Shown here in pieces: positions 11,474 to 11,579 of a stretch of DNA of 64,000 bases. The DNA lies in the NCBI RefSeq assembly GCF_036507355.1, contig NZ_AP027877.1, one strand, 5' to 3'. Position numbers and translations under genes: made by a program. Within the stretch, counting starts at the first letter, position 1. Each line of letters opens with the position of its first letter. Source of the DNA: Escherichia coli (GTDB lineage Bacteria > Pseudomonadota > Gammaproteobacteria > Enterobacterales > Enterobacteriaceae). The notes below the pieces were generated by a model. The model worked only from the letters and a program-made list of their open reading frames with translations, did no database searches and was not told where the DNA came from.

Positions 11474-11579
11474 TTCTGCTTAAACGCGTCGAAATTAAAG
11501 TTAAATAATACCCGGTTGCGATATTCGTACCGGGCTTTAGAGATTTGCATTTTTTTAATTAACCTTTCAAGGATTAAAG

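Follow-up and report, generated by a model that had tools for sequence, protein, structure and literature searches.

The gfc operon of Escherichia coli, the group 4 capsule operon of O157:H7, raises the question of whether, and by what means, expression of its first gene is set apart from that of the genes that follow. Overlaps of 1-4 nt occur among gfcB, gfcC and gfcD, and the 106-nt gap between gfcA and gfcB is the sole long untranslated stretch within the operon. RefSeq annotates no feature in this gap, and a literature search returned no published description of the hairpin that lies in it. An earlier note on this DNA had read the hairpin, together with a run of seven T, as a possible intra-operon attenuator that would set the stoichiometry of GfcA versus the downstream export proteins. 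We followed this idea up in the window, i.e. the whole 64-kb stretch of DNA analyzed, which is from E. coli O157:H7 and in this region is 100% identical to O157:H7 chromosomes. The coordinates in Table 1 derive from the RefSeq annotation of an identical O157:H7 record (window offset 2473) and from the list of open reading frames, and they bear out the extent of the gap as first described (gfcA stop codon TAA at 11471-11473, gfcB GTG start at 11580).

Table 1. Features of the gfc region, in window coordinates
Feature	Position	Strand	Basis
cspG	10017-10229	-	RefSeq annotation of identical record
cspH	10515-10727	+	RefSeq annotation of identical record
gfcA, Thr-rich small protein, gfc operon gene 1	11168-11473	+	ORF and RefSeq annotation
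gfcA stop codon TAA	11471-11473	+	ORF
gfcA-gfcB gap, 106 nt	11474-11579	+	ORFs and RefSeq annotation
Variable spacer, gfcA stop to hairpin	11474-11510	+	E. coli lineage comparison
gfc-type stem-loop, CCCGGU / bulged U / GCGA-UAU-UCGU / ACCGGG	11511-11534	+	folding, conservation, covariation
A/U-rich single-stranded spacer CUUUAGAGAUUUGCA 3' of stem	11535-11549	+	sequence; invariant in E. coli
T7 run	11550-11556	+	sequence
gfcB ribosome-binding region: AGGA 11570-11573, GTG start 11580-11582	11570-11582	+	sequence, ORF
gfcB, lipoprotein gene	11580-12224	+	ORF and RefSeq annotation
gfcC	12221-12967	+	RefSeq annotation
gfcD	12967-15063	+	RefSeq annotation
gfcE	15109-16248	+	RefSeq annotation
etp	16236-16682	+	RefSeq annotation
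etk	16702-18882	+	RefSeq annotation
appA	3' of etk, convergent	-	RefSeq annotation
Canonical operon-end terminator, 11-bp stem then TTTTT	18966-18991	+	terminator scan

Folding of the gap supports a stem-loop at this position, slightly smaller than the one proposed: CCCGGU (11511-11516) pairs with ACCGGG (11529-11534) to give a 24-nt hairpin with a bulged U11517, an inner 4-bp stem GCGA/UCGU and a UAU loop, and the outer A11510 and C11535, which the earlier note had included, are unpaired. The T run, which had been placed at 11552-11558, lies two bases further upstream and starts 15 nt 3' of the stem. The folding that had been proposed as a check gives a stable local hairpin (-13.1 kcal/mol, z -3.69, with 0 of 200 shuffles equally stable) that also stands out in a 56-nt context (-16.2 kcal/mol, z -3.58), while the fold of the entire 106-nt gap is just marginally above shuffles (z -1.38). 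The minimum-free-energy and centroid folds of the gap both retain the hairpin and contain no competing structure, such as the antiterminator pairing of a leader-type attenuator or riboswitch, and a second copy of either arm is not visible in the gap. On the plus strand, 26-nt hairpins of equal stability occur at 19 places in the 64-kb window (0.13% of scanned segments), which translates into a chance of about 3% of finding one in a 106-nt gap. The evidence from the single sequence is therefore modest and only suggestive, and the stronger argument comes from conservation with covariation in 21 loci.

Within E. coli, the hairpin is invariant in 97.6% of genomes and the neighbouring spacer varies. 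Over the 75 nt that begin just before the hairpin and end with the GTG, 3563 of 3650 genomes share at least 99% identity; over the whole 106-nt gap just 514 of 3653 do. In the strains sampled (O157, K-12, EPEC and three others) all substitutions fall between the stop codon and the hairpin, and EPEC E2348/69, whose hairpin and downstream sequence are those of O157, carries five substitutions upstream of the hairpin and, close to the Shine-Dalgarno sequence, a single inserted base. Insertion sequences have reached the region in individual strains: in E. coli FAM21845 (L082:340-464) IS1 replaces gfcA and the left hairpin arm, with the junction inside the hairpin, and in K-12 (L079:1-292) the end of an IS1 transposase gene lies 88 nt upstream of gfcA. 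Matches to the gap in E. coli RefSeq genomes include five places on plasmids instead of chromosomes.

The hairpin has a median of one place per E. coli genome, and on this ground we rejected membership in the REP/BIME family. In the 64-kb window the pattern CCCGG..CCGGG has three matches, of which the other two are unrelated, and an Rfam covariance-model search of 11474-11579 returned no match even at E<=10. Similarly, the ops element GGCGGTAGNNTG had no match at up to one mismatch in 10700-11170, and an ops/JUMPStart-RfaH module was rejected given that there is no ops element near gfcA.

To follow the element beyond E. coli we used an alignment of GfcB homologues, which yielded 68 species loci, and look-ups of individual homologues, which added 11 further contigs. 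At every locus a short Thr/Gly/Ala-rich gene A encoding a signal peptide precedes a YjbF-family lipoprotein gene B, and in nearly all of the 70+ loci gene B starts with GTG (occasionally TTG) followed by CGN; this conserved weak gfcB/yjbF start fits gene B being expressed at a lower level than gene A. Twenty-one Enterobacteriaceae loci, including Escherichia, Citrobacter, Enterobacter, Cedecea, Superficieibacter and a Klebsiella-labelled isolate, with GfcB 53-98% identical to the query, are of the type found in the window. All 21 (the window and 20 others) contain exactly one CCCGG-N12-14-CCGGG per gap, and the gfcA-gfcB hairpin of the window, flanked by a Thr-rich gene A and a YjbF-family gene B with a GTG start, belongs to this type, which we refer to as gfc-type. 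The distance from hairpin to gene B start is 26-70 nt in most of these loci and about 157 nt in four.

In a 19-sequence alignment (A2), 92.7% of the cells of an eight-pair helix are paired. The five core pairs are invariant and for that reason carry no covariation signal; the other three changed on both sides, i.e. pair 16-29 (AU 5, UA 4, CG 3, UG 2), pair 17-28 (GC 9, AU 4) and pair 10-35 (AU 15, CG 1, GC 1). The covariation score was reached by 0 of 500 shuffles, a significance that these controls overstate because the loci are related by descent, and sliding the partner strand brought pairing down to 24-51%. Inner stems and loops vary by lineage, yet every gfc-type sequence folds (-10.7 to -27.3 kcal/mol), the E. 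coli hairpin being of moderate stability only. The sense strand is the more stable one in 17 of 19 loci and G.U pairs are present, which together favor an RNA element, carried by the mRNA, rather than a DNA operator. Directly after the gfcA stop codon, within the first 40 nt, many gfc-type loci (L010, L012, L014, L072, L073, L076 and L078) have another stable hairpin (-16 to -22 kcal/mol) that E. coli is without. The gfcA-gfcB hairpin is, in our view, a real and conserved element that is probably functional.

A stem-loop at the same position is found in the paralogous yjbEFGH operon and in most Erwiniaceae. This yjb-type hairpin, ATAACCACAC-N4-GTGTGGTTAT, is similar to the gfc-type in that it follows a Thr-rich gene A and precedes, by 19-77 nt, a GTG-initiated lipoprotein gene B; it differs in its sequence, in its fixed 4-nt loop and in that a T run is usual. 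Among 57 species (Erwinia, Pantoea, Mixta, Winslowiella, Rahnella and others), 54 share one and the same 10-bp stem (20 nt) around 21 different loops, and in 53 of the 57 species three or more further T follow, so that there the hairpin qualifies as a textbook terminator. In Mixta tenebrionis (L013) its place is taken by an unrelated hairpin and T6, and in the yjbE-yjbF gap of K-12 (L069:1217-1240) the hairpin ATAACCACAC-TCCG-GTGTGGTTAT lies 22 nt 5' of the GTG without a T run. In metagenome contigs the exact pattern occurs at 80 loci, 71 of which have a YjbF homologue 19-77 nt downstream; one more has its YjbF cut by the contig end (about 72 in all), and the remaining matches are another one at a contig end, eukaryote-like repeats and unrelated AT-rich DNA. 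The possibility that this palindrome is a regulon-wide operator was rejected, given that, those remaining matches aside, the metagenome contigs carry it only beside yjbF homologues, and no other locus with it was found in the Enterobacterales contigs. Each arm may resemble a DnaA box, at 7 of 9 positions. The presence of hairpins in both types of gap makes a stem-loop after gene A a family-wide trait of GfcABCD/YjbEFGH operons.

In the Superficieibacter-like clade (L003, L005, L006 and L075, with gaps of 245-247 nt) a single gap holds both hairpin types, with an A run behind the gfc-type hairpin and a terminator of the form ATAAC..GTTATTTTTT about 35 nt before gfcB. The T run and TATTAAC of this clade resemble the T7 and AATTAAC of E. 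coli, a likeness that raises the possibility that the T7 run of E. coli is the relic of a lost second hairpin.

Whether transcript levels change at this boundary can be read from published counts for EPEC E2348/69, in which DESeq2 baseMean values divided by gene length (Table S2 of PMC8550237) give gfcA a read density above that of gfcB by a factor of 10-11 and above that of gfcC-etk by a factor of 16-35 (Table 2); these counts are per gene, from another strain and pooled from the wild type and an hfq mutant, and thus do not place the step at nucleotide resolution. Whereas uniform coverage across the gfcA-gfcB junction had been named as the observation that would refute an attenuator, the per-gene EPEC counts show the opposite, a 10-11-fold drop per kb. 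This drop, the conserved hairpin with its compensatory changes and the yjbEFGH counterpart all support the idea of the earlier note that the stoichiometry of gfcA and the downstream genes is set here. As for an mRNA-stabilising intercistronic hairpin, the upstream segment exceeds the downstream one in abundance, in per-gene counts of this other strain.

Table 2. Transcript abundance in the gfc operon of EPEC E2348/69, calculated from PMC8550237
Gene	baseMean, sheet 1	Per kb, sheet 1	Per kb, sheet 2
gfcA	3388.5	11,074	2,338
gfcB	646.6	1,002	229
gfcC	462.4	619	82
gfcD	1274.9	608	49
gfcE	763.0	669	51
etp	271.8	608	56
etk	1834.6	841	92

Combining the conservation and the expression data, we suggest, with a probability of roughly 0.45, that the stem-loop sets the 3' end of an abundant mRNA segment covering gfcA alone and shields it, thereby keeping gfcA about ten-fold or more over gfcB-etk, with at most weak termination. 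In this model, (i) the full gfc operon would be transcribed from the gfcA promoter, (ii) some polymerases may stop just past the stem, (iii) an endonuclease would cleave read-through transcripts in the unstructured A/U-rich stretch 11535-11560, with 11535-11549 as its candidate entry site, (iv) 3'-to-5' exonucleases would trim back to the stem and stall there, and (v) the gfcB-etk part would decay faster and be translated from a weak GTG start. The data themselves show the hairpin, its conservation with covariation, its bias to the sense strand and the abundance step at this junction in EPEC; the hairpin as cause of the step, the cleavage and exonuclease stalling, and the share of termination are inferred. 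The spacer contains two RN↓WUU motifs of the RNase E type, which is about chance level for an A/U-rich stretch, and we did not count them as evidence.

A decay barrier is favored over termination by four observations. First, the stem-loop itself has the form of an intrinsic terminator (6+4 bp stem, 5 basal G-C pairs, 3-nt loop, -13.1 kcal/mol), whereas the tail CUUUAGAG has 3 U in 8 where our rule for a U-tract asks for at least 5 U in 8 and a start within 2 nt of the stem. Second, no more than 9 of the 21 gfc-type hairpins have a tail that satisfies even a lenient rule for U content. Third, an A run follows the conserved hairpin in four loci, all in the Superficieibacter clade; in total, these three observations leave canonical terminator anatomy unsupported. 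Fourth, E. coli yjbE, yjbF, yjbG and yjbH are co-induced (microarray log2 5.7, 5.7, 4.3 and 5.2) past the T-less hairpin. Moreover, a drop of about 90% exceeds the effect expected of a tail such as CUUUAGAG, which also favors a model of segmental stability. The attenuator proposal thus holds in so far as a boundary element separates gfcA from the export genes, and fails in its anatomy of hairpin plus T7, with the T7 15 nt off and a tail of 3 U in 8. A terminator score in the style of d'Aubenton-Carafa placed even textbook yjb-type terminators near or below zero and was dropped in favor of U counts. We conclude that the gfcA-gfcB hairpin probably acts as an ordinary kind of within-operon expression divider and is not a textbook terminator.

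It is nevertheless possible, if rather doubtful, that the hairpin is a partial intrinsic terminator at which RNA polymerase stops either a few bases past the stem or, once a longer A/U helix has formed, at the T7 run, with read-through expressing gfcB-etk. The GC-rich base of the stem with UUU directly after it, the UUUU tail of E. albertii, the nine relatives with U-rich tails and the mRNA step of about 10-fold are consistent with this model, as is the textbook terminator that forms the positional counterpart in 53 of 57 yjb-type species. The T7 run may pair weakly with the A-rich 5' flank to give an extended helix from 11491 to 11553 (-17.3 kcal/mol, z -2.84), after which UUU would follow; we rejected the T7 as the U tract of this longer hairpin, given that the A/U helix is weak and interrupted and that its register is lost in E. 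albertii. As sole cause of the step, termination would have to reach about 90%, at a tail with 3 U in 8 that a consensus terminator scan left unflagged while finding the etk-appA site at 18966-18991, and the T7 run is 15 nt away. The A runs after the same hairpin in four relatives and the induction of all four yjb genes to a similar degree in the microarray data also argue against it.

A further model, which we consider improbable, has the step arise downstream of the hairpin: weak translation of gfcB from its GTG, possibly lowered by the small RNA RprA, would leave bare RNA open to Rho termination or rapid decay, and the hairpin would be incidental or a relic. In addition to the GTG start, this model draws on EPEC RIL-seq data with 19 Hfq-mediated chimeras between RprA and the gfcB start region (PMC8550237 Table S3; window about 11566-11617) and on a premature RNA 3' end at nt 155 of EPEC gfcB, which is among the entries of Supplementary Data 5 of PMC10687069 (NC_011601 position 1037199, minus strand) and maps to about window 11734. 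Density is roughly flat after gfcB, and gfcB itself is 1.4-3.4 times above gfcC-etk; this excess indicates a second, smaller drop and fits with a 3' end inside gfcB. If all transcripts at the gfcA level continued to nt 155, however, gfcB would have about 3,100 per kb and not the observed 1,002, so that most of the drop occurs before nt 155, and this model leaves the conservation and covariation of the hairpin without explanation. Among the published 3'-end entries listed there is none at the gfcA-gfcB hairpin, and those listed in Adams 2021 and TERMITe include none for gfcA or yjbE; this, like the 3' end mapped inside gfcB, counts against the protective role favored above. The same RIL-seq table has 72 Spot 42 chimeras at the gfcC/gfcD junction (window about 12940-13010) and 11 at the gfcA 5' UTR, and together the RprA and Spot 42 chimeras suggest sRNA control within the gfc operon.

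That the hairpin, or the DNA palindrome, is the site of a sequence-specific factor controlling read-through, processing or gfcB translation is quite improbable. This model would account for an invariant CCCGG/CCGGG core in 21 loci with GfcB 50-65% identical, and for a yjb-type stem that is invariant in 54 of 57 species although the adjoining B proteins are mutually only 35-61% identical; this conservation of the yjb-type stem far exceeds the need of a plain terminator and goes beyond what structure by itself should require. Against it, the arm spacing varies from 12 to 14 nt, the G.U pairs and strand bias favor RNA over a DNA operator, and the yjb-type palindrome occurs at no other locus in the Enterobacterales contigs. 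We know of no candidate factor for the hairpin, which we also count against this model. Because the invariance of the stem goes beyond structural need, there is a small chance that a dedicated recognition factor exists. In such a scenario the gfc-type and yjb-type hairpins could be two versions of an undescribed cis-regulatory RNA specific to this operon family, with a dedicated trans-acting factor that would read the stem sequence, and not its shape alone, to tune the ratio of the Thr-rich GfcA/YjbE protein to the outer-membrane machinery GfcBCD/YjbFGH, e.g. by conditional read-through or processing under envelope stress.

Two other explanations are very improbable. A cut upstream of the hairpin could leave a 5'-terminal stem on the gfcB-etk mRNA that slows RNase E, for which the position 26-70 nt 5' of the gene B start in most loci would be suitable; the downstream segment is, however, the less abundant one, and four loci have about 157 nt between hairpin and gene B. 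Equally hard to sustain is a lack of function, with a hairpin that arose by chance or is what remains of an ancestral terminator in decay: the modest single-sequence significance and the degenerate U tract would agree with this, the invariance in 97.6% of E. coli genomes next to a variable spacer and the compensatory changes across genera do not.

The gfc hairpin has parallels in well-known systems. Among them are the malE-malF intercistronic REP stem-loops of E. coli, reportedly described by Newbury et al. in 1987. In both systems a stem-loop without a functional U tract follows the first and most abundant gene, and shielding of the upstream mRNA from 3' exonucleases, the role we propose for the gfc hairpin, is that of the REP stem-loops, which give a large excess of the first gene product; REP sequences, however, form a multi-copy family with its own consensus, whereas the gfc hairpin is single-copy and specific to the gfc operon. 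In pap and other chaperone-usher fimbrial operons a stem-loop is said to follow the major pilin gene (work attributed to Baga, Nilsson and Uhlin), and here too a short, highly expressed first structural gene precedes the hairpin. In pap, partial termination and RNase E processing jointly set the subunit ratio; the pap hairpin has a U-rich tail and mapped processing sites, whereas the gfc hairpin is known from sequence. In the group 1 capsule cluster of E. coli K30, an intra-operon hairpin that lies between wzc and wbaP and serves as an attenuator, reportedly from Rahn and Whitfield in 2003, similarly divides export genes from other genes. That element follows wza-wzb-wzc and works with JUMPStart/ops and RfaH, whereas the gfc hairpin follows gene 1 and has no ops near gfcA. 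Finally, intercistronic hairpins set segmental mRNA stability in the puf operon of Rhodobacter capsulatus with a comparable, about 10-fold, excess of promoter-proximal genes, in an unrelated organism and by larger multi-hairpin structures of unrelated sequence.

Given that this class of mechanism is well known, the general significance of the gfc element is modest, and the hairpin itself is a new element of that class. For the operon, the consequences are more specific. EPEC, EHEC and Shigella sonnei need GfcA for their group 4 (O-antigen) capsule, and a 10-fold or greater excess of gfcA mRNA together with a conserved RNA element at the boundary constrains models for the function of GfcA, in favor of a stoichiometric or structural component and against a catalytic one. 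gfcA qPCR often serves as a proxy for operon expression and overstates the level of the export genes. The shared layout in yjbEFGH suggests a family-wide design rule.

Three other structured elements were observed in the window. The etk/appA intergenic hairpin (18966-18991, 11 bp and a T run) is strong and canonical and probably acts as a two-way terminator. The 5' UTR and coding region of cspG (9963-10385, minus strand) give a full-length match to the Rfam cspA thermoregulator with 158.8 bits (gathering score 78). A weak STnc220-like match at 9780-9860 on the minus strand, with 34 bits and thus below the gathering score of 60, overlies a two-way terminator-like hairpin, AGGCTCC-loop-GGAGCCT, at 9795-9813.
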